DNA from: an uncultured bacterium | GTDB taxonomy: Bacteria > Krumholzibacteriota > Krumholzibacteriia > LZORAL124-64-63 | Length of the DNA stretch: 64,000 nt | Reading direction: 5' to 3' | NCBI GenBank assembly: GCA_963732385.1 | Contig: CAVSZB010000003.1 | Coordinates: 96,001-160,000 of the forward strand | Shown here: positions 31,172 to 64,000 of the stretch, piece after piece | Position numbering within the stretch: position 1 is the first letter of the stretch | Layout of the letters: every line of letters begins with the position of its first letter | The notes under the pieces: model-generated | What the model was told of the DNA's origin: nothing | Database searches by the model: none | Seen by the model: only the letters and a program-made list of their open reading frames with translations | Position numbers and translations under genes: made by a program

Positions 31172-31597
31172 ATGAGAAGCTCGCGAACGCTCCTGCTGAT
31201 CGCCGCCACTCTGCTCCTGGCCGGCGCAGCAGCCCAGGCGCGCGTCAGCCACAGCGACTCGGGGATCCTCTCCATCGACACCGTGACAGCCGTTGGCGAT
31301 GACGCAGCCGGCCCTCCGCAGGCCTCGATCCTCGCCACGATCTACCCGAACCCGTTCAACCCCCGCACGACGATCGCGTACGAACTGGCCGAGGCCGCCA
31401 CGGTCGAGCTGGCGATCTACGACCTGCGCGGAATGCTGGTGCGGGTGCTGGAAGCGGGCCCCCGGTCGGTCGGCCGCCACGAGGCAATCTGGGACGGCCA
31501 GGACAACGCGGGCCACGGGGCTCCGACCGGCACGTATTTCTGCCGGCTGAGCACGCCGCAGGGATCGCAAACCAGGAAGCTGACGCTGGCCCGCTGA
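31172..31597 (+). CDS. Minimal secreted protein: signal peptide, short strand, FlgD-Ig/T9SS-like C-terminal sorting domain
   Basis: YPNPFNPRTTIAY, IYDLRG..VR.L, WDGQD, GTYFCRL, KLTLAR. Confidence 0.85.
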   Translation: MRSSRTLLLIAATLLLAGAAAQARVSHSDSGILSIDTVTAVGDDAAGPPQASILATIYPNPFNPRTTIAYELAEAATVELAIYDLRGMLVRVLEAGPRSVGRHEAIWDGQDNAGHGAPTGTYFCRLSTPQGSQTRKLTLAR

Positions 31598-50536: not shown

Positions 50537-52084
50537 CTACGGGAAGTGGAGCGGCAGCGCCCACTGTTCCACCATCCGCCCATTCACCCAGATCGTGTAA
50601 TCGAACGGGTCGGGGTGTATTCCGCTGTCCATGATCAACTCGATCCGGCCGTGGCGGAAATCGCGCGCGTAGTTGTTTCCGCTGATCAGCGGCGGGCCGA
50701 GCGCCGGCCCGAGGCTGATGTCCACGTTCGTCCAGCCGTAGCCCCAGATGCCGCCCGGATTCCACGCCGAGTACGTGCCGGCCAGCAGCCCGATGGCGCG
50801 GAACAGGTTGCCGAGGATGAGCGGCTTCATCGTGCCAGTATAATAATCGTAATAGCTGTTCTGGGTCGTGCTGGCGAGGATGTTGTAGGGGCCTCCGTTG
50901 TCGCGCCGGGGCCAGTTTATCGTGCGGAAGACATTGTAGGGGAACGACGGGCTCAGGGCGTTGCGCACCGTTTCCGGGCGCGGGAAGAAGATCTCCGGGA
51001 ACATCTCGTAGAACATACCGTCGCCCAGGGCCGCGAAGGCGGAGTCGGCGTACGCCCGCTGTCCGTTGAAGATCTGGATGAAGTCGTCACCCAGCGAGTC
51101 GCGCACGGCGCTGATGAGCGAAGCTTCCCCCGCCTTGAAGGCCGCGATCTCGTCGGGGTCGGACGCCATGGCGATGCCGTCGCCATCGAAATCGGGCTCA
51201 CCGTCGACGATCGGATCGACCGCGGGCGCGATCCAGATCAGATTGTTGAAGTAGTCCCAGAAAATGCCGTCGAACTTGTTGTTCGAGTTGCGCTGGAACT
51301 CCACGATCGTGCGCACCATCGCCTCGCGGCAGGCCGGGTTGGTGATGTCGATCACCGGCTGCCCCGGCCAGTCCATCAGGGTGTCGCCGAGCGTGGTGGA
51401 AACCCAGAAGGGGCGCGTGCGGTCGAACCAGGCCTGGCAGAACGGCAGGTTCGCACCGGAATTCTCCCAGTTCAGCATCGAGGTCTTGCCCAGGACGTAG
51501 CCGATCACCCGGCAATCGGGATTGATGGCCTTGATCCGGTCGATGACGTGCAGCGACTCGTTCAGCGGGTTGCCCCACAGGTAATTCGGCGTCAGGACGA
51601 CCAGATCGGCGCGCGCGTACTTTTCGAACTGACCCGGCACGGTCCAGTCGATCGACATCCAGTCGTTGATCGCGTACAGGCGGGGAGAATGGGGCGCGAA
51701 GAGCGTGCCGAGATCACTGGCCACCACCCGGACCCGGTAGTCGTTCCCCTCCCGATCGGGGTTGTCGAAGCCGAAATTCCAGACGATGTGCCGGCCGGAC
51801 CCCGGAGCGATGCCCGGCCCGGCATCGCCCGTGTATTGCGAACAGGGCATGACCCAGTCGGCGCCGCCGTCGTCCGAGACGAGCAGGGTGACGGCGCAGG
51901 TGTCGCCGTCGGCGTCCGCCAGGTCGTAGGTGACGTCCACGAGCCGGCTGCCATCGGTCCGCTGGGCGAACCGCACGTTGCTGACGACAGGATCGGCCGC
52001 GCGCGCCGTCGGGGCGGACGCGGTGGCGAGGCCGAGCAGCGCGATGGCGAGTGTGCAGGCGCGGAGGCCGGGGGCGTGCGTCAA
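50537..52084 (-). CDS. Secreted putative glycoside hydrolase-like protein with N-terminal Ig-like domain
   Basis: TTG start overlapping the upstream TGA (TTGA); signal peptide; IKAINPD, IDITNP, FDGIFWD motifs; DFDGDG Ca-loop. Confidence 0.7.
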   Translation of the reverse strand: MTHAPGLRACTLAIALLGLATASAPTARAADPVVSNVRFAQRTDGSRLVDVTYDLADADGDTCAVTLLVSDDGGADWVMPCSQYTGDAGPGIAPGSGRHIVWNFGFDNPDREGNDYRVRVVASDLGTLFAPHSPRLYAINDWMSIDWTVPGQFEKYARADLVVLTPNYLWGNPLNESLHVIDRIKAINPDCRVIGYVLGKTSMLNWENSGANLPFCQAWFDRTRPFWVSTTLGDTLMDWPGQPVIDITNPACREAMVRTIVEFQRNSNNKFDGIFWDYFNNLIWIAPAVDPIVDGEPDFDGDGIAMASDPDEIAAFKAGEASLISAVRDSLGDDFIQIFNGQRAYADSAFAALGDGMFYEMFPEIFFPRPETVRNALSPSFPYNVFRTINWPRRDNGGPYNILASTTQNSYYDYYTGTMKPLILGNLFRAIGLLAGTYSAWNPGGIWGYGWTNVDISLGPALGPPLISGNNYARDFRHGRIELIMDSGIHPDPFDYTIWVNGRMVEQWALPLHFP

Positions 52085-52827
52085 GGCACCATCACCACCT
52101 TGGTCGTGAGTTCGGCCTGTCCGGAGGCGCCGCGCCAGGTCAGGCGCAGCAGGTACGTGCCGGCGGCGACACGCCGGCCGGTGTGGTCGGTGCCGTTCCA
52201 GATCGCCTCGTACTCGCCTGCCTCGCGCGGCCCCTCGGCCAGCGTGCGGATCATGCGGCCGCGGGCATCGTAAAGCACGAGCCGCACCTCTCCGGGCGCC
52301 GCCAGGGCCCACGCCAGGCGGGTGGCCGGATTGAAGGGGTTCGGGTGCGGGGGCCGCAGCACGACCGGGTTGCCCGCGAAGGTTGGGGTGACGCCGGTCG
52401 TGGAGGCGAGGATCGAGAACCGGGTGGTGGTGGCCGCGGTGCGGTTGCCGAAGGAGTCGGCCGCCGTGACCGTCAGGAAGCAGAGCGCCGAATTGAGCTC
52501 CGGAACCGGCCAGGCCCACTGCACCGGGCCGGACAGGGGAGGGGCGGCAAGACTGTCGAGCGCGGCGAGATCCATCATTACGCGCGCCAGGAGGGCCGCG
52601 GAACCGGAACCGGGGTGCAGTTCGCCGAACGTCCAGGCGAAAAGGGCCGTTTCGCCGCCGCGATAAGTCTGGCCGATCGGCAGGATCGGCAGGACGACCT
52701 CGGGGTTGCGGGCATCCAGGGGGCCGGGCGCGGCGTCTCCCCGCCCGACGCCGGCCTGAACGCAAGCCGGCAGCCCCGCGGCAAACATAAAAAGAATAAA
52801 CAAACTACATAAATACAAAAACCTCAC
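52081..52827 (-). CDS. Secreted Ig-like protein with FlgD-Ig/T9SS-like C-terminal sorting domain
   Basis: Signal peptide from GTG 52827 (approximate); LTVTAADSFGN, PNPFNP, WNGTD, GTYLLRL, KVVMVP. Confidence 0.8.
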   Translation of the reverse strand: MRFLYLCSLFILFMFAAGLPACVQAGVGRGDAAPGPLDARNPEVVLPILPIGQTYRGGETALFAWTFGELHPGSGSAALLARVMMDLAALDSLAAPPLSGPVQWAWPVPELNSALCFLTVTAADSFGNRTAATTTRFSILASTTGVTPTFAGNPVVLRPPHPNPFNPATRLAWALAAPGEVRLVLYDARGRMIRTLAEGPREAGEYEAIWNGTDHTGRRVAAGTYLLRLTWRGASGQAELTTKVVMVP

Positions 52828-52981
52828 CCTGCATGCACTTTCCCTCGACCAGCCCGAAAAGAGACTCTTCGGGTTCCAGGTCGAGATTGGCACTTCGGGC
52901 GAGGTTGTCGCATAATGATAACACAAGTGAGGATCGGCGGACAAGGGGGGTGCCCGGGGGCGCCCCGGAAGGACGATTAAC

Positions 52982-53395
52982 GTGGTTGGCCTGCGCAAGC
53001 GCCTGATCGTGGTGGGAGATCGCATCCTCGTGCGGCCCGAACGGGGGGAGGAGCGGACCAATACCGGACTTTACCTGCCTCAGACCGCCATCAGTTCGCG
53101 TCTGGCGCAGGGGGGATGGGTGGCGGCGGTCGGGCCGGGCCTGCCGATTCCTGAGCTTGCCGACCTGTACGACGAGTCGGCCTCGCCGCGCGAGTCGGTG
53201 GCGCGGTACGTCCCCCTGCAGGCACAGGAGGGGGATTACATGCTCTTTCTGCGCAAGGCAGCCGTGGAAATCACCTTCGACCAGCAGCAATATCTGATCG
53301 TGCCGAACTCGGCGGTTCTGGTCCTGATGCGCGAGGACTGGGACGGGGATCTGCACGGCTCCCTGCCGCGGAGCACCGACGAACCGCCGGAATGA
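52982..53395 (+). CDS. Orphan GroES-family co-chaperonin
   Basis: GDRILVRP, GLYLP, VAAVGPG; no groEL adjacent. Confidence 0.85.
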   Translation: MVGLRKRLIVVGDRILVRPERGEERTNTGLYLPQTAISSRLAQGGWVAAVGPGLPIPELADLYDESASPRESVARYVPLQAQEGDYMLFLRKAAVEITFDQQQYLIVPNSAVLVLMREDWDGDLHGSLPRSTDEPPE

Positions 53396-57188: not shown

Positions 57189-57262
57189 AATCCCCATCTT
57201 TTAAGTTGGGATTCCCGGCCGCAACGGTTTACGGGGGAGGTCGTCGCCTTGGGTGGACACAT

Positions 57263-57973
57263 ATGACATCCCGGCGCGACATCGGTTTTCGTCTCATGGT
57301 GGCTGTGCTGTACGTCACGGCGGCCGCGGTCGTAATGACCGCACTGATCGACGGCTACTCCTATTACATCACGCCGCTGGCAGAGCGCCCGCATATGGAG
57401 GACTACCGCCTGCTGCGTCCCGGCGGGATGCGCGGGCACGGCTACGGCGTGGTCGGCTCGGCGCTGGTCCTGCTGCTGCTGCTCTACTCGGTGCGCAAGC
57501 GCTCGCGATGGTTGCAGAAGTACGGCACGCCCGCGCAGTGGCTGCAGGTGCACATCTGCTTCGGCATCGTGGGGCCGCTGCTGATCATCCTCCACACCTC
57601 ATTCAAGGTGCGGGGGCTGGTGGCCGTGAGTTTCTGGTCGATGATGGCTGTGGCGTTGAGCGGGGTCTTCGGGCGGTGGCTCTACCTGCAGATCCCGCGC
57701 AACCTCGCCGGACACGAACTCTCGCGCCAGGAGATCGCGGCGCTGGAGAAGGAGCTGTCGGAGCGCGTGGCGCAGGAATCACGACCGCGCCAACTGGTCC
57801 GTCTGGCCAGGCGACGGGCAGTCCTGGAGCGCAAGGTGCGGCGACTCGAAACGATCCGCGGCATTTTCCACTGGTGGCATGTCGTTCACAAGCCGTTCGC
57901 GGTCATCATGCTGGTCATCATGCTCGTGCATGTCGCCGTCGCCGCGAGTCTCGGCTACACGTGGGTGTTCTGA
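57263..57973 (+). CDS. Cytochrome b / ferric-reductase-like membrane protein
   Basis: About 5 TMs with His pairs WLQVH...IILH and WHVVH...MLVH. Confidence 0.75.
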   Translation: MTSRRDIGFRLMVAVLYVTAAAVVMTALIDGYSYYITPLAERPHMEDYRLLRPGGMRGHGYGVVGSALVLLLLLYSVRKRSRWLQKYGTPAQWLQVHICFGIVGPLLIILHTSFKVRGLVAVSFWSMMAVALSGVFGRWLYLQIPRNLAGHELSRQEIAALEKELSERVAQESRPRQLVRLARRRAVLERKVRRLETIRGIFHWWHVVHKPFAVIMLVIMLVHVAVAASLGYTWVF

Positions 57974-59730
57974 TGCTGCATACGACACTTCGCCTGCGCG
58001 CTCTTTGGCCGCGCGCCGCGGCGCTTCTTTTGGCGCTGTCGGCCGCCGCGCCGGCGTCCGCGCAGCTGAGTCCCGGACCGCTGCACGGGTCGCACCAGAA
58101 ACTCGAAGGGGTGGAGAACTGCACGCGCTGTCACGAAGTGGGGCGCAAGCTCTCCGCGGACAGGTGCCTCGCCTGCCACACCGCCCTCGCGGCGCGGGTC
58201 CGCGCGAAGCAGGGATTGCACGCGCAGCCGGGCCACGAGACCTGCGAGAAGTGTCACGTGGAGCACCAGGGCCGCGACTATCAGCTCATCTGGTGGGGCA
58301 GGGCCGGCCAGGCCGAGTTCGACCACGCACAGACCGGCTGGAAGCTGGAGGGTAAGCACGCGGGCCCGGCCTGCGGGCGGTGTCACAAGCCGGAAGCCGT
58401 CGCCGGCCGGGCGGCGCTCGTGGCCGGCGCCGCCAATCCCCAGCGCACGTTCCTGGGCCTGCGCACCGACTGTGCCGCCTGCCACCGCGATCCGCACTCC
58501 GGCCAGCTCGGGGCGGACTGCCGCTCGTGCCACGGCCTGGAGAGCTGGCGCGGGGCCACCGGTTTCGATCATGCCCGGACGCACTTCCCGCTGACCGGTC
58601 GCCACCGGGATGTCGTCTGCGCGAAGTGCCACCCGGCATTGCCGGCGGAGGCTGACGCCGTCGAGCCGGCAGCTGTGGCCGGCGTACCGGCGGGCGCGGG
58701 GCGACGGCAGTGGCGAGGCGTGGCTTTCGCGGGCTGCGACGACTGCCACCAGGATCCGCACGCCGGACGTCTCGGCGGCGCCTGCGCCTCCTGCCACACG
58801 ACCGAGAGCTGGCGCGCCGTGAGCCAGGCGCGGTTCGATCACGAGCGCACGCGCTATCCGCTGCGTGGGAAGCACATCGCGGTGCCGTGCAAAGGCTGCC
58901 ATCGTCCCGACCGCCCTGCCCGCGGACTGAAGTTCGCGGCCTGCACCGACTGTCACGCCGACCGGCACGCCGGGCAGTTCACGAAGCTCGAGGGGGGGGG
59001 CGACTGCGCCCGCTGCCACTCCGTCGAGGGGTACGCTCCGTCCAGCTACACGGTCGACCGTCACGCCGGCACGACCTATCCGCTCGCGGGGGCGCACCTG
59101 GCCGTGCCGTGCGTCGGCTGCCACGCCCGTCCGCGGGCCGGCGCGCCGGTCTCGGACATCCCGTTCCACTTCGTTTCCACCCGTTGCCAGGTCTGTCATC
59201 GCGATCCTCATCGCGACGAAGCCAGGCCGTGGGTCGACAAGGGCGGCTGCGAGTCGTGCCATCGTCTCGACGCGTGGTCGGCAGCTACCTACGACCACGC
59301 CACGACCAAATTCCCGCTCGCGGACAAGCACGCCACGGCGCGCTGCTCCGCCTGCCACAAGCCGCTGGCGCCCGCTGCGCCGCCCGGGGCCATCCACCTG
59401 CGTGGCGTGGACCGCGCCTGCGAGTCGTGCCATCGCGACCCGCACGCCGGACAGTTTTGCGCCGCGACCGGGGGCGTCACCGCCTGCGAACGCTGCCACG
59501 AAACGGCGAATTGGCGCGCCGGGCGCTTCGATCACAACCGCGAGGCGGCCTTCAGGATCGACGGTGCGCACGCCCGCACCCGTTGCGCGCAGTGCCATCT
59601 CCGCGAGGGGGAGGGCGAGGCGGCCTTCACCCGCTACAAGCCGCTCGGACGGGAATGCGCGACGTGCCATCGGTCGAATCCGGTCCGGCCGGAGGCCGCC
59701 GTCGTCCCGTCGCAGGAAGGAACCCCATGA
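57973..59730 (+). CDS. Multiheme cytochrome c, 20 CxxCH
   Basis: Signal peptide; 20 CxxCH counted; FDH..T.FPL.G.H repeats. Confidence 0.93.
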   Translation: MLHTTLRLRALWPRAAALLLALSAAAPASAQLSPGPLHGSHQKLEGVENCTRCHEVGRKLSADRCLACHTALAARVRAKQGLHAQPGHETCEKCHVEHQGRDYQLIWWGRAGQAEFDHAQTGWKLEGKHAGPACGRCHKPEAVAGRAALVAGAANPQRTFLGLRTDCAACHRDPHSGQLGADCRSCHGLESWRGATGFDHARTHFPLTGRHRDVVCAKCHPALPAEADAVEPAAVAGVPAGAGRRQWRGVAFAGCDDCHQDPHAGRLGGACASCHTTESWRAVSQARFDHERTRYPLRGKHIAVPCKGCHRPDRPARGLKFAACTDCHADRHAGQFTKLEGGGDCARCHSVEGYAPSSYTVDRHAGTTYPLAGAHLAVPCVGCHARPRAGAPVSDIPFHFVSTRCQVCHRDPHRDEARPWVDKGGCESCHRLDAWSAATYDHATTKFPLADKHATARCSACHKPLAPAAPPGAIHLRGVDRACESCHRDPHAGQFCAATGGVTACERCHETANWRAGRFDHNREAAFRIDGAHARTRCAQCHLREGEGEAAFTRYKPLGRECATCHRSNPVRPEAAVVPSQEGTP

Positions 59731-61208
59731 GACTCGCGAAGTGGGCCGTGGCGAGCGCGGCCGTTCTGCTGGCGATCGTGGCTTCTCCGGCCGGCGCGCA
59801 GACGCCGGCAGACAGTCCGCACGGCCCGCTGGCGCTCGACTGCGCGATCTGCCACAACACCGCGGACTGGAGCGTGGCGCCGCGGCCGCCCGCCTTCGAT
59901 CACGGCCGCTCCGGCTTCCCGCTCGCGGGGCGACATGCGGCCGTGAAATGCGGCGACTGCCACCGCGATCTCACCTTCGGGCATGTCGGCAGCGCCTGCG
60001 CCGACTGCCATGTCGACGCCCATCGTGGCCAGCTCGGCCCGAACTGCGAGCGATGCCACGCGCCGACCGGCTGGGAGAGCCGTGGCGTGCTGTTCGAGCA
60101 GCACGCCGAGCGCGGTTTCCCACTCGTCGGCGTGCACGCGGCCGCCGACTGCGAGGCGTGCCATGTCGACCAGCAGCGGCAGGACTTCGTGGGCAACCCG
60201 GTCACCTGCTACGGCTGCCATGCGAACGACTATGCCGCCACGCGCGAGCCCAGCCATCTGCTGACCGGCTTCAGCACGGACTGCTCCCAGTGCCACGTGC
60301 CGACCGCCTCCTGGCGGCCGGTGTTCGTGCAGCACACCCCGGCCTTCCCGTTGCGCAATGCCCACGCCCGTACCGGCTGCCTCTCCTGCCATGCGAGCGG
60401 TTACGCCGGCACCTCGCCCCTCTGCTACTCATGCCACGCGGACGACTACAACGGCACGCAGGAGCCGCCGCATGTCGCCTCCGGCCTGGCGACCGCCTGC
60501 GAGCAGTGTCACACCGACGCCGGCTGGGGCGGCGGCACCTTCGATCACGCCGTGAGCACCGGCTTCGCGCTGACCGGCGCGCATGTGAGCCTCGCCTGCA
60601 CCGCCTGCCACGTGAACGGACTATGGGCCGGCACGCCGCAGGACTGTTACAGCTGCCACGCCGCCGACTACAACGGCACCACCGATCCGCCGCACGCCGC
60701 CTCCGGCATGCCGACAACGTGCCAGCAGTGCCACAGCACGACCACCTGGGGCGACGGCACCTTCGATCACGCCGTGAGCACCGGCTTCGCGCTGACCGGT
60801 GCGCACGCGACCACGACCTGCACGACGTGCCATGTCGATGGGCAGTGGAGCGGCCTGCCGCAGGACTGCGACGGCTGCCACGCCGCGACCTACAATGCCA
60901 CCACCGATCCCGCGCACACCGCGGCGAATTTTCCGCGCACCTGCCAGACCTGCCATACGACGCTTGCCTGGCAGCCGTCGACATGGAACCACGAGACGCT
61001 GTTTCCGATCAACTCCGGGGCGCACCGAACGGTGTGGGCCTCCTGCGCGACCTGCCACGTGAATCCGGCCGACTACGGCGTGTTCGAGTGCATCGACTGC
61101 CACGAGCACAACCGGACCGACACGGACGGCCACCACGACGGCGTCAGGAACTACGAGTATCTCAGCACCGCCTGCTACAGCTGCCACCCGAACGGGAGGG
61201 CCGATTGA
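59727..61208 (+). CDS. Multiheme cytochrome c, 19 CxxCH
   Basis: AGGAAGGA RBS, signal peptide; 19 CxxCH counted. Confidence 0.93.
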   Translation: MRLAKWAVASAAVLLAIVASPAGAQTPADSPHGPLALDCAICHNTADWSVAPRPPAFDHGRSGFPLAGRHAAVKCGDCHRDLTFGHVGSACADCHVDAHRGQLGPNCERCHAPTGWESRGVLFEQHAERGFPLVGVHAAADCEACHVDQQRQDFVGNPVTCYGCHANDYAATREPSHLLTGFSTDCSQCHVPTASWRPVFVQHTPAFPLRNAHARTGCLSCHASGYAGTSPLCYSCHADDYNGTQEPPHVASGLATACEQCHTDAGWGGGTFDHAVSTGFALTGAHVSLACTACHVNGLWAGTPQDCYSCHAADYNGTTDPPHAASGMPTTCQQCHSTTTWGDGTFDHAVSTGFALTGAHATTTCTTCHVDGQWSGLPQDCDGCHAATYNATTDPAHTAANFPRTCQTCHTTLAWQPSTWNHETLFPINSGAHRTVWASCATCHVNPADYGVFECIDCHEHNRTDTDGHHDGVRNYEYLSTACYSCHPNGRAD

Positions 61209-62824
61209 TGCACCGCGCGCAACCAGCTGTCGCCCGCCTCTGGCTGGCCGCCGTGACCATGGCGCTCCTGCTGCCCGCGTCGGCCGCCGCGCGCGAATTC
61301 AAGGTGCGCTATCTTTCGGCCGACTTCGTCTATCTCGACGCCGGCACGGTCGATGGCCTTGCTCCTGGCGACACGCTGCTCGTGTCGCGCCGGGGCGAGG
61401 GCGTGGCCACCCTGGCCGTGGCGCATGCCGCCGAGCATTCGGCGTCGTGCCGCGTGCTCGCCGCGAACACGGCCGTGCAGCCCGGCGATGCCGTGAGGCC
61501 CCTCCGCGACGGGACCGTCACCGTTGCCGCGGCGGTCGCGCCGCCGCCGGCTCCCGCCCCGATCGCCGAGCCGGCGCCGGTCGACGAGCCGTCCGATCCA
61601 CCCTGGGCCCGGGCGAGCGGCTATGTCGCGCTGCAGTGGTACCGGTTCGCGGACCGCGGCGCCTCGGGGCTGGACTACGACCAGCCGACGCTGCGCATCA
61701 ACTTCCGCGCCCGCAAACTGTGGGGGAAGGATCTCACGTTCCAGATGCGCTGCCGCGCCCGGCACGACGGGCGTTCGCGTCGCTACAACGCGACGGTCCC
61801 CGCCGATGAGTGGAGCAATCGCGTCTACGCGCTGTCGCTCGCCTTTGACAATCCGGACGCCACGGTCAACTGGCAGGCGGGGCGGATTGTCTCGAACGCG
61901 CTCGCCGCGACCGGCCCGGTGGACGGCGCGCTGGTGGAAGCCCGCCTCTCCCCGACGCTGCGCGCCGGCGCCTTTGGCGGGTTCCTGCCCGACTGGAGCA
62001 GCACGGCGCCGCGCGGCTCGCTCCGGAAGTACGGCCTGTTCCTGAACGCCGCCGGCGGGGAATACGGCGCGTCGCGGTGGTCGGCGGCGCTGGCCGGCAC
62101 CGCCGAATACCACGGCTCCACGGTGAGCCGTCAGTATCTCTTCCTGCGGAACGACTGGCAGTCCGGACGCCGCTGGAGCCTGTTCCAGAGCTGGGAGATC
62201 GATCTCAACCACGGTTGGCGCCGGCCGCCCGGCACCGCCGCGGTGGAACTGTCGAACGTATACCTCTCGGCCGGCTACCGTCCGGGTGGGCGGACCGCGC
62301 TGTCGGTCAGCTACGACAATCGCCGCAGCTACCGCACCTGGGACAATCGCGCCCTGCCCGACAGCCTGTTCGACGCCGCCTTCCGCACCGGCCTGCGCGC
62401 GAATCTCCACGCCCGCCTGGGCGCCGGCTGGACCGGCTCTGCGGGCGGCGGCTGGCGCCACCGGCAGGGCGAGGCGGACGACACCTGGTCGTGGCACGGC
62501 AGCCTGACCCGCGACGATTTCCTGGGCGAGCGCGTGCGCCTGACCGCGCAGGCCGCCGGCTTCTCGGGGCCGTGGGCCGACGGATTCAATCCTTCGCTGC
62601 AGCTGCAGAAGGCATTCCTGGCCGGTCACCTGATCGGCCTGTCGGGCGGCGAATACCTCTACACGCCGACCGCTGGCGGCGATCGTCGCCAGAACCGCTG
62701 GGCGAGGATCGACGGAACCCGCTACCTGACGACGCGGTTCTTCCTGTCCGGCCAGTACGAACGCGACTGGGGCGATGACGTGGAGGGGGACCGGTTCCTG
62801 GCCGAAGCCGGTCTCAACTTCTAG
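61208..62824 (+). CDS. Outer-membrane beta-barrel (porin-like) with small N-terminal beta domain
   Basis: Signal peptide, amphipathic aromatic strands, C-terminal beta-signal EAGLNF. Confidence 0.75.
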   Translation: MHRAQPAVARLWLAAVTMALLLPASAAAREFKVRYLSADFVYLDAGTVDGLAPGDTLLVSRRGEGVATLAVAHAAEHSASCRVLAANTAVQPGDAVRPLRDGTVTVAAAVAPPPAPAPIAEPAPVDEPSDPPWARASGYVALQWYRFADRGASGLDYDQPTLRINFRARKLWGKDLTFQMRCRARHDGRSRRYNATVPADEWSNRVYALSLAFDNPDATVNWQAGRIVSNALAATGPVDGALVEARLSPTLRAGAFGGFLPDWSSTAPRGSLRKYGLFLNAAGGEYGASRWSAALAGTAEYHGSTVSRQYLFLRNDWQSGRRWSLFQSWEIDLNHGWRRPPGTAAVELSNVYLSAGYRPGGRTALSVSYDNRRSYRTWDNRALPDSLFDAAFRTGLRANLHARLGAGWTGSAGGGWRHRQGEADDTWSWHGSLTRDDFLGERVRLTAQAAGFSGPWADGFNPSLQLQKAFLAGHLIGLSGGEYLYTPTAGGDRRQNRWARIDGTRYLTTRFFLSGQYERDWGDDVEGDRFLAEAGLNF

Positions 62825-62843
62825 CGGACGGCGGGAGGACGGC

Positions 62844-64000
62844 GTGGAGAACCTGCTGATCTGGGGCGTCGTTGCGGTCCTCTGCGCGGTCATTCTCATT
62901 CCGTACGCGGTCGGCTTCCGACGGCGCAACCGGACCGACACGGCGCGCCGCGAGGAGGCGGTTCAGCTTGGCGCCGACCGCCCGGTCGCCCAGTACCCGC
63001 TCATCGACGAGGGGCAGTGCATCGGCTGCGGCGCCTGCGTGGCGGCCTGTCCCGAGGGGGATGTGCTCGGCATCGTCGATGGACGGGCCGTCATCGTGAA
63101 CGGCATGCGCTGTATCGGACACGCGCGCTGCGCCGATGCCTGCCCGGTCGGCGCGCTCCAGGTCGGTCTCGGCGATGTCGGCGAGCGCGAGGACATTCCG
63201 CGGCTGACCGCGGACTGTGAGACCACCGTGCCCGGCGTGTATATCGCCGGCGAGCTGAGCGGTTTCGCCCTCATCCGCAACGCCATCAGCCAGGGGGAGC
63301 GGGTCGTGATGACGGTGGCGCGGCGGCTGCGGGCGGCCGGTCCCGCCGCCGTCGAGCCCCCCGCCCCGGGAGGCGTCGCCGACGGTGCGCGTCTGCGCGA
63401 TCTTATCATCGTGGGGGCCGGACCGGCCGGGATGAGCGCCGCCCTGACGGCGCGACGCGAGGGGCTGTCGTACCTCGTTCTGGAGCAGGAGCAGGCCGGC
63501 GGCACGATTCTGCAGTATCCGCGCAAGAAAGTGGTCCTCACCCAGCCGGTAGAGATCCCGCTCTACGGCCGTCTCGACCGCGAGGAGTACACCAAGGAGG
63601 AGCTGCTCGGCATCTGGCAGGAGGCACGCGAGCAGTTCGAACTGCACGTGCGCACCGGCGAGAAGCTCGAGATGATCACGCACCGCCCCGACGGTCTGCT
63701 GGCCGTCCGCACCCAGACCGGCGAATGGCTCGCGCGCGCCGTCATCCTGGCGCTCGGACGCCGCGGTACGCCGCGCCGGCTCGGCGCGCCCGGGGAGGAG
63801 CTGGAAAAGGTCGCCTACAAGCTGCTCGATGCCGAATCGTACCACGGTGAGAATCTGCTCGTGATCGGTGGCGGCGACAGCGCCGTGGAGGCCGCGCTCG
63901 GGCTGGCGCGCCAGCCGGGCAACACCGTCACCCTGGCGTACCGCAAGGAGAAGCTGTTCCGCATCAAGAAGCGCAACGCGGAGCGCTTTGCCGCCGCGCT
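62844..64000 (+). CDS. Membrane-anchored 2x[4Fe-4S] FAD/NAD(P)H oxidoreductase (thioredoxin-reductase-like), truncated by the window end
   Basis: Own translation from GTG 62844 (GGGAGG RBS): TM, CIGCGACVAACP, CIGHARCADACP, GAGPAG, GGGDSA. Confidence 0.9.
   Translation, partial: MENLLIWGVVAVLCAVILIPYAVGFRRRNRTDTARREEAVQLGADRPVAQYPLIDEGQCIGCGACVAACPEGDVLGIVDGRAVIVNGMRCIGHARCADACPVGALQVGLGDVGEREDIPRLTADCETTVPGVYIAGELSGFALIRNAISQGERVVMTVARRLRAAGPAAVEPPAPGGVADGARLRDLIIVGAGPAGMSAALTARREGLSYLVLEQEQAGGTILQYPRKKVVLTQPVEIPLYGRLDREEYTKEELLGIWQEAREQFELHVRTGEKLEMITHRPDGLLAVRTQTGEWLARAVILALGRRGTPRRLGAPGEELEKVAYKLLDAESYHGENLLVIGGGDSAVEAALGLARQPGNTVTLAYRKEKLFRIKKRNAERFAAA

Follow-up and report, generated by a model that had tools for sequence, protein, structure and literature searches.

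The window analysed here is a stretch of 64,000 nucleotides (nt) from an uncultured bacterium of the phylum Krumholzibacteriota (GenBank assembly GCA_963732385.1, contig CAVSZB010000003.1, positions 96,001 to 160,000 of the forward strand); positions are counted from its first letter. Its 3' end holds an operon of five genes, all on the forward strand and here called g1 to g5, which we assign to the PCC3 family of porin-cytochrome systems. The first gene, g1 (57263-57973), encodes an inner-membrane protein (IMP) of 236 residues with 9 histidines and no CXXCH motif. Two genes for cytochromes with signal peptides follow: g2 (57973-59730; 585 residues, 20 CXXCH motifs) is the counterpart of the 'periplasmic' cytochrome of PCC3, and g3 (59727-61208; 493 residues, 19 CXXCH motifs) that of the 'extracellular' one. 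Within g3, a tandem repeat on the same strand was located with TRF at 60432-60922, its unit of 222 nt corresponding to 74 residues and three haems. The fourth gene, g4 (61208-62824), encodes a predicted outer-membrane barrel of 538 residues with a signal peptide and the C-terminus AGLNF, and the fifth, g5 (62844-64283, held by the window up to 64000), a protein of 479 residues that reads as a membrane-anchored 2x[Fe-S]/FAD/NAD(P)H flavoprotein.

In the initial annotation of this DNA the first four genes were said to overlap stop to start, and this was confirmed: g1 and g2 share 1 nt (TGATG), g2 and g3 share 4 nt (ATGA), and g3 and g4 share 1 nt (TGATG). The five-part anatomy given there (a His-paired membrane protein, 20- and 19-haem cytochromes, a barrel and an anchored ferredoxin-flavoprotein) was likewise borne out by motifs, Pfam matches and AlphaFold2 models. 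Together g2 and g3 carry 39 CXXCH motifs within 1078 residues, a haem-motif density far above chance. The signal peptides of g2, g3 and g4, as read from the sequence, are of the Sec type and have no lipobox cysteine. The source assembly comprises 3.8 Mb in 9 contigs, with 68% G+C. The same gene order was found on contigs of four sediment-type metagenome runs, at 95-99% identity to the window; one of these contigs covers 57200-61331 and another 59001-63045. A scan of the operon for promoters and terminators returned no promoter-like site, and terminator-like sites at chance level.

PCC3 was described in Sideroxydans, Leptothrix and other Proteobacteria, where it was predicted by genomics (He, Barco, Emerson and Roden, 2017; PMC5566968). 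The parts of that paper used here list a porin, an 'extracellular' repeat-built cytochrome with a median of 34 and up to 85 haems, and a 'periplasmic' cytochrome with a median of 21. The IMP of PCC3 and PCC4 is given in the same parts as about 300 residues long, with five helices, an SGxxG motif in helix 4 and a W-x3-H-x13-H motif in each of helices 3 and 5; its likeness to the ferric-reductase/NOX domain was seen, yet exchange with the quinone pool was proposed (PMC5566968). Further PCC3 sources, likewise drawn on in part, are a survey of the Gallionellaceae (PMC9900912) and a study of S. lithotrophicus ES-1, with the clusters Slit_0867-0870 and Slit_1446-1449 (PMC8788666). In the available parts of Hoover et al. 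(2023), Zhou et al. (2022) and a 2025 preprint on Sideroxydans CL21, PCC3 comprises four genes, and the preprint calls it 'functionally unverified'.

The set used for comparison with PCC3 consisted of 20 long-contig loci of the published layout from the class that contains Citrobacter, rather than of the named Slit_ references; the IMP profile matched 67 of 401 sampled genomes of this class, one of which, flagged as unpublished, contributed no locus. In all 20 loci the IMP has two W-x3-H-x13-H motifs and SGxxG, and the cytochrome after it shows 28-35% identity with g2 across residues 1 to about 571, with 21 haems (14 loci), 24 (five) or 18 (one). The next gene encodes a variable cytochrome, mostly of 13-85 haems (9 at one locus; two were cut by the contig end). 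At the nine loci read through to the third downstream gene, this encodes a protein of 620-850 residues ending in LGYR[AW]DF. None of the 20 barrels was found by tblastn with g4; with hhalign, residues 132-521 of g4 were matched to the C-terminal part of eight of these porins over 359 columns, at a probability of 96.5% (E 7.7e-10).

Set beside the published description, g1 has the five helices, both W-x3-H-x13-H motifs and SGxxG of the IMP; g2, with 20 CXXCH motifs and adjoining the IMP, takes the place of the cytochrome of about 21 haems; g3, with 19 CXXCH motifs and the 222-nt tandem unit, that of the repeat-built variable cytochrome; and g4, by its 22 predicted strands and the hhalign match, that of the porin. 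The same four parts thus stand in the same order, g1, g2 and g5 being homologous between the two groups and the barrel remotely so, and because of this shared layout and homology we regard the operon as a true, compact member of PCC3. The view that its architecture is unlike that of known systems, first put forward in contrast to decahaem MtrA, is therefore not supported: it is of the type published in 2017, down to the W-x3-H-x13-H and SGxxG motifs (PMC5566968). The operon differs in lying in a lineage outside the Proteobacteria, in its smaller barrel (538 residues and 22 predicted strands, versus 620-850 residues) and in holding the flavoprotein gene inside the operon, whereas in the PCC3-layout loci of the Citrobacter-containing class this gene is mostly divergent.

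A homologue of g5 (36-44% identity) was found within 10 kb of the IMP at 18 of these 20 loci; at 15 of the 20 it lies on the opposite strand, less than about 1.5 kb from the IMP start, and 17 of the 18 homologues keep the motif C-I-G-H-G-A-C-x3-C-P. We therefore take the flavoprotein to accompany PCC3 generally instead of having been added locally. The words 'FAD', 'flavo' and 'ferredoxin' do not occur in the main text of He et al. (PMC5566968), whose Supplementary Tables 3-5 may bear on the point; its Supplementary Table 6 lists smaller clusters of a cytochrome and an IMP with an unnamed 'other redox protein' of 412-805 residues. The supplement of Zhou et al. (2022) does not give the genes that flank Slit_0867-0870. 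No flavoprotein-fed porin-cytochrome system was found in literature searches, and no paper joining PCC3 with the phyla considered below was among the matches listed. Relative to the literature consulted, the flavoprotein partner (including that of proteobacterial-type loci) and its invariant CxxHxxCxxxCP motif appear to be new, as do the remote homology of small and large barrels and the gain or loss of a three-haem module between strains.

The five genes were also found together in many other genomes; a failure to co-occur had been named in the initial annotation as grounds for refuting its reading. A profile of g4 matched 83 of 208 genomes of the window's phylum (52 of the 125 of good quality; 36 of 81 genera), and 20 loci on long contigs, from 18 of the 83 barrel-positive genomes, were read. 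All five genes are present at 17 of them, in three orders: g1-g2-g3-g4-g5 (11 loci), g1-g5-g2-g3-g4 (4) and g5-g1-g2-g3-g4 (2). Outside the phylum, a search was made with the g1 alignment, taking one genome per species, and among the best 80 of 462 related stretches 52 hold all five genes. By their record titles the 80 include Thermoanaerobaculia, Holophagales, Vicinamibacteria, Calditrichota (including Caldithrix abyssi), Zixibacteria, Ignavibacteria, Eisenbacteria, Latescibacterota and Electryonea. Among the 28 stretches without the full set, 26 end less than 6 kb past g1 and one ends just past the barrel gene, behind a gene for an 85-haem cytochrome. The cluster is not mentioned in the passages searched of the Caldithrix abyssi genome paper (PMC5317091). 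A cultured carrier is Emticicia oligotrophica DSM 17448, in which the cassette lies on the 100-kb plasmid pEMTOL02 (78197-89995) and reads as ccsA, an IMP, an NAD(P)-binding protein, two cytochrome c3 family proteins and a hypothetical protein of 538 residues. The plasmid cassette stands directly behind the ccsA gene, a fused cytochrome c biogenesis gene, and an ECF-type sigma factor, a Rieske protein and other barrels are encoded nearby.

The open frame of g5 begins at 62775. Homologues start with M-E-x-L-L-I-W, so the likely start codon is GTG 62844, which corrects the start from the frame opening; it is preceded by GGGAGGA (62833-62839) and lies 19 nt past the g4 stop. The protein begins with a hydrophobic helix followed by RRRNR, and continues with a 2x[Fe-S] ferredoxin domain (matched by Fer4 families of Pfam) and a flavoprotein domain with two dinucleotide-binding parts (Pyr_redox_3/Pyr_redox_2). 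Both cluster motifs, CxxCxxCxxxCP and CxxHxxCxxxCP, are conserved. The second has an invariant histidine (62 of 62 aligned sequences) in place of its second cysteine; a histidine or a missing cysteine at this position is seen in His-ligated or 3Fe clusters. GxGxxG and GGGDSA are invariant in 46 sequences.

Residues of about 170-435 of g5 gave profile matches (E 9e-49 to 1e-18) to YpdA/Bdr, thioredoxin reductases and ferredoxin-NADP reductases of the thioredoxin-reductase type; the nearest solved relatives are PDB 7a7b, 3ab1, 6gas and 3lzw, with YpdA/Bdr the best (E 9e-49). All NCBIfam scores were below the cut-offs (YpdA TIGR04018, 160 versus 339.9 bits; TIGR01292, 85.8 versus 343). With YpdA and the thioredoxin reductases g5 shares the two-domain flavin/NAD(P)H fold; unlike them, it adds the membrane anchor and the 2x[Fe-S] domain with CxxHxxCxxxCP, and it has no redox-active CxxC. 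In the 62-sequence alignment every conserved cysteine lies within the ferredoxin domain and no CxxC disulfide motif was found; g5 is therefore not a disulfide reductase. The anchor helix with its positive residues, the lack of an export signal and the confinement of NAD(P)H to the cytoplasm together point to a position on the cytoplasmic face. One family of the phylum has a g5 homologue with an extra Cys-rich segment (CPRC...CPRC, zinc ribbon-like) between anchor and ferredoxin domain, and there the flavoprotein gene is placed between g1 and g2.

For g1, the AlphaFold2 model (17 sequences, predicted local distance difference test score (pLDDT) 89) shows five long helices that span the membrane, with a charged helical hairpin linking helices 4 and 5. 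The motifs lie at W93-x3-H97-x13-H111 in helix 3, S133-G-x-x-G137 in helix 4 and W205-x3-H209-x13-H223 in helix 5. In 46 aligned sequences from several phyla H97, H111, S133, G134, G137, W205, H206, H209 and H223 are invariant, and W93 is kept in at least 90%. Positive residues cluster at the N-terminus (MTSRR), after helix 2 (RKRSR) and in the Arg-rich hairpin after helix 4; by the positive-inside rule the N-terminus and the hairpin would be cytoplasmic, which would set H97/H209 close to the cytoplasmic side of the membrane and H111/H223 close to its periplasmic side. Such a placement would match the geometry of two stacked b haems, and g1 is predicted to bind two. The length of only 236 residues, against the roughly 300 of the published IMP, is explained by a cytoplasmic loop about 50 residues shorter than in relatives. 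The g1 family is large, with 4506 representative clusters at E <=0.001 among 1.84 billion representatives. No match was found in NCBIfam, only unnamed clusters (0.86-0.87) in the ESM Atlas, and no NOX, STEAP or MsrQ chain among the Foldseek or VIA-align matches listed.

The signal peptides of g2 and g3 are read as cleaved at ASA/Q and AGA/Q, respectively. Pfam matches were Cytochrome_C7, Cytochrom_CIII and MtrC/MtrF domain II/IV for g2, and Cytochrome_C7 and Paired_CXXCH_1 for g3, so by their domains both appear to be polymers of the c7/c3 type. The g2 counterpart has exactly 20 CXXCH motifs in 14 of 17 full clusters of the phylum, and in g3 all 19 sites are invariant or nearly so among 11 aligned relatives. 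The mature g2 begins with Q-L-S-P-G-P-L-S, a stretch that is strongly conserved among relatives. A sequence search of the PDB with g2 returned nothing; the g3 profile gave a single, weak match, the 16-haem cytochrome 1z1n (E 1.5e-7). In one metagenome contig g2 has 12 extra bases at 58673, which would stay in frame, within a Pro/Ala/Gly-rich linker.

The repeat of g3 (TRF: period 222, 2.2 copies, 81% matches) varies between strains. In contigs of two sediment metagenome runs (95-97% identity) one 222-nt unit is missing in frame, 60634 being joined to 60857, so that close strains differ by having 19 or 16 haems. Relatives of g3 have 10-85 CXXCH motifs, and most counts follow 3n+1 (13, 16, 19, 22, 25, 28, 31, 49, 52, 58, 85); 20, 27 and 36 fall off this series. 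From the indel and the counts together it follows that three-haem modules are added to and removed from the cable, even among close strains.

The initial annotation had made its reading depend on g4 folding as a barrel, and such a fold is indeed predicted. The AlphaFold2 model (16 sequences, mean pLDDT 79, predicted template modelling score (pTM) 0.69) starts with a small beta domain (31-98), which is followed by a disordered linker rich in Pro (101-129) and by a 22-strand barrel (135-537). Foldseek returned generic large barrels only (ushers, OprD/Occ, AlgE), and MtrB was not among the 50 matches listed. No Pfam or NCBIfam family was found for g4, a Pfam search to E 0.1 giving only a capsid family by chance, and a search for related loci with g4 alone returned two near-identical records only.

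Taken together, these results lead us to propose that the operon is a PCC3-family system, likely a haem wire across the whole envelope, which would draw its electrons from cytoplasmic NAD(P)H through a tethered Fe-S flavoprotein of its own; we put the probability of this reading at roughly 0.55. The 39 c-type haems are likely to form a chain that starts at the inner membrane and ends at the cell surface; the cofactors, the contacts between the proteins, NAD(P)H as donor, the acceptor and the direction of flow are as we infer them. On the cytoplasmic side NAD(P)H would reduce the FAD of g5, and electrons would pass through both of its Fe-S clusters to the inner b haem of g1 (H97/H209) and then to the outer one (H111/H223). 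They would enter the 20-haem g2, bridging the periplasm, and then g3 with its modular set of 19 haems, which would be lodged inside the g4 barrel or pass through it, and would be delivered to an outside acceptor such as Fe(III)/Mn(IV) minerals, humics or perhaps O2. Such a design would resemble a NOX or ferric reductase divided between two proteins and fitted with a cytochrome cable, and it would not need quinones. That a flavoprotein feeds the wire without quinol had been suggested at the outset; the very conserved linkage across phyla backs this suggestion, with NAD(P)H as the presumed donor.

A number of findings weigh against this reading. Both Pfam scores of g1 were below cut-off (Ferric_reduct PF01794, 14.9 versus 28 bits; DUF4405 PF14358, 19.6 versus 26.7, limited to residues 203-225), and the precomputed DUF4405 family is found on 3 of 120 listed relatives. 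Foldseek of the g1 model against the PDB gave nothing at E <=0.001. VIA-align against 48,161 chains gave, among the matches listed, mostly coiled coils (Z 7-8.7); the only haem protein there, the di-haem b protein CybB of E. coli (5oc0; Z 8.1, root-mean-square deviation 3.5 over 134 residues), was tied with unrelated coiled coils. The predicted 22-strand barrel of g4 is smaller than the barrel of MtrB, which has 26 strands. The linkage also has gaps. Three of the 20 loci of the phylum hold only a g3-like cytochrome (18-19 haems) and a g4-like barrel, two of them being second copies in genomes with the full set, and one Calditrichota locus has an IMP homologue (40% identity) with none of g2-g5 within 8.7 kb downstream. 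In the Citrobacter-containing class no g5 lies within 10 kb at two of the 20 loci, and two of the 18 homologues seem cut or broken (open frames of 294 and 273 codons). The window's own genome encodes complex I and one haem-copper oxidase, so a quinone route is available. Finally, outward export of electrons discharges the inside-negative potential, as in NOX; the module would therefore dump reducing power with no energy conserved, and a respiratory role is hard to explain. At the Calditrichota locus, 9- and 11-haem open reading frames (ORFs) lie nearby.

Some of these findings bear on the published, quinone-coupled form of PCC3, in which g1 would be a quinol oxidase or quinone reductase and the flavoprotein an accessory (a second input, a means of repair or poising, or merely co-regulated). 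The quinone pool implied by complex I and the oxidase and the loci that have no g5 nearby speak for such coupling, as does the analogy with cytochrome b subunits on which it was proposed for the IMP (He et al., 2017; PMC5566968, in part). The tied match of g1 to CybB, a quinone-linked protein and its best haem-protein fold match, may point the same way. Against this, no quinone-site motif was found, g5 keeps with g1 through three gene orders and many phyla, and the fusion of anchor, ferredoxin and flavin/NAD(P)H domains looks like an electron-input module for g1. We regard quinone coupling as rather unlikely; it is compatible with an NAD(P)H-fed wire, and the two models are not exclusive.

That the step from NAD(P)H would conserve no energy also fits a non-respiratory use of the same wire and the same input, either in extracellular Fe(III) reduction for iron uptake (FRE-like) or in superoxide production (NOX-like). 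Emticicia oligotrophica, which carries the cassette and comes from warm spring water, is an aerobe, and the haem-copper oxidase of the window's genome points the same way. So does the His pattern of g1, which is that of the ferric-reductase/NOX domain according to the passages used of He et al. (PMC5566968). We nevertheless consider such a use unlikely: 39 to more than 100 haems would be a heavy investment for iron assimilation, no iron-uptake gene or Fur-type site was seen beside the operon, and the relatives of the window's strain come from sediment metagenomes.

The link drawn in the initial annotation was to extracellular acceptors or donors, and here its two halves part: export is the direction we favour, and uptake, in which donors would reduce NAD(P)+, is improbable on energetic grounds. 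In an uptake model, the wire would oxidise extracellular Fe(II), minerals or a cathode and carry electrons inward through g5 to NAD(P)+, giving direct reducing power. The available parts of the literature offer it some footing: PCC3 was first found in organisms that oxidise Fe(II), a role as iron oxidase has been considered for it, and the inner-membrane component of one PCC3 copy was up in iron-oxidising Sideroxydans CL21 (2025 preprint). The same literature also tells against it, both PCC3 clusters of S. lithotrophicus ES-1 being down-regulated on Fe(II) compared with thiosulfate (PMC8788666, in part). Moreover, the path from Fe(II) to NAD(P)+ is steeply uphill, electrons moving inward are opposed by the inside-negative potential, no coupling device was seen in g1, and most of the carriers found here belong to lineages of the heterotroph type (Bacteroidota, Acidobacteriota, Calditrichota). 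We judge uptake very improbable.

The NAD(P)H-fed reading may tentatively be extended to PCC3 in general, iron-oxidising Proteobacteria included, at odds that we place a little short of even. PCC3 systems would then be split, envelope-spanning NAD(P)H oxidoreductases and not quinone-linked iron oxidases: a NOX-like module of Fe-S flavoprotein and di-haem b protein would be hard-wired to a haem cable and a porin and would send reducing power from the cytoplasm out of the cell, bypassing the quinone pool.

With MtrCAB, MtoAB and PioAB the window system shares the principle of a multihaem cytochrome sheathed by an outer-membrane barrel; it differs in having 20 + 19 haems instead of decahaem cytochromes and an inner-membrane partner that is not CymA/NapC. 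It is not a member of these families: MtrB_PioB of Pfam did not match g4, and the DmsE/MtrA cytochrome family TIGR03508 scored 28.6 and 46.7 bits, against a cut-off of 192.2. Like the window system, Pcc (OmbB-OmaB-OmcB) and Ext of Geobacter join a porin with a periplasmic and an outer multihaem cytochrome in one cluster. Their outer cytochromes are lipoproteins, and they are fed from quinol by ImcH/CbcL; the window proteins, in contrast, lack a lipobox, and an IMP and a flavoprotein are encoded within the cluster itself. The sole sequence comparison made to Pcc/Ext was the ExtKL match in NCBIfam (18.9 bits versus a cut-off of 250).

NOX/FRE and MsrQ-Fre, the latter a two-component system of this kind, resemble the g1-g5 pair in having His pairs 13 residues apart, here on helices 3 and 5, with two b haems (predicted for g1) and a cytoplasmic flavin/NAD(P)H input. 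Compared with NOX/FRE, g1 has five helices and falls below the Ferric_reduct cut-off, the dehydrogenase is a separate, thioredoxin-reductase-like protein with two Fe-S clusters, and the acceptor would be a cytochrome cable. To our knowledge, all well-studied Gram-negative routes of extracellular electron transfer begin at the quinol pool. If the proposed reading is true, a route started by NAD(P)H would differ in its bioenergetic design, acting as an overflow for electrons or as a reductase and not as a respiratory chain, and PCC3 genes in metagenomes, now counted as possible iron-oxidation markers, would have to be read differently. The family is large, being found in many uncultured sediment and soil phyla besides the Citrobacter-containing class, and the reading can be tested directly in cultured carriers.

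Besides complex I and the oxidase, the window's genome has more than 20 other multihaem ORFs (at least three CXXCH motifs; for example C7:21188-24544, C3:297392-300537, C7:1247407-1257586 and C9:2198-6547), so the PCC3 wire would be one of several routes. Among these ORFs are a 42-haem frame and a 12+22-haem pair. No second copy of g1, g4 or g5 was found elsewhere in this genome. A NapC/CymA-type gene was not found in the operon, and weak Cytochrom_NNT matches were seen elsewhere in the genome.

Directly 3' of g5, and overlapping its stop by 4 nt, lies a gene (64280-64942; 64060-65598, in window numbering) that matches PMT_2, an ArnT-type glycosyltransferase family, over 220 codons and then seemingly continues in another frame, possibly through a frameshift or an assembly error. 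It was rejected as a member of the cassette because it is found at none of 98 related loci. The genes upstream of g1 (an S9 peptidase, a STAS/anti-sigma pair, a Cpn10-like protein and a GHL15-like glycosidase) were judged unrelated to the cassette. Several secreted proteins nearby carry C-terminal domains of the T9SS type (FlgD_ig / Por_Secre_tail), encoded at 50537-53058 and 31172-31594 and at contig positions 67479-70565, and these tails around the operon are in keeping with a lineage of the FCB group.

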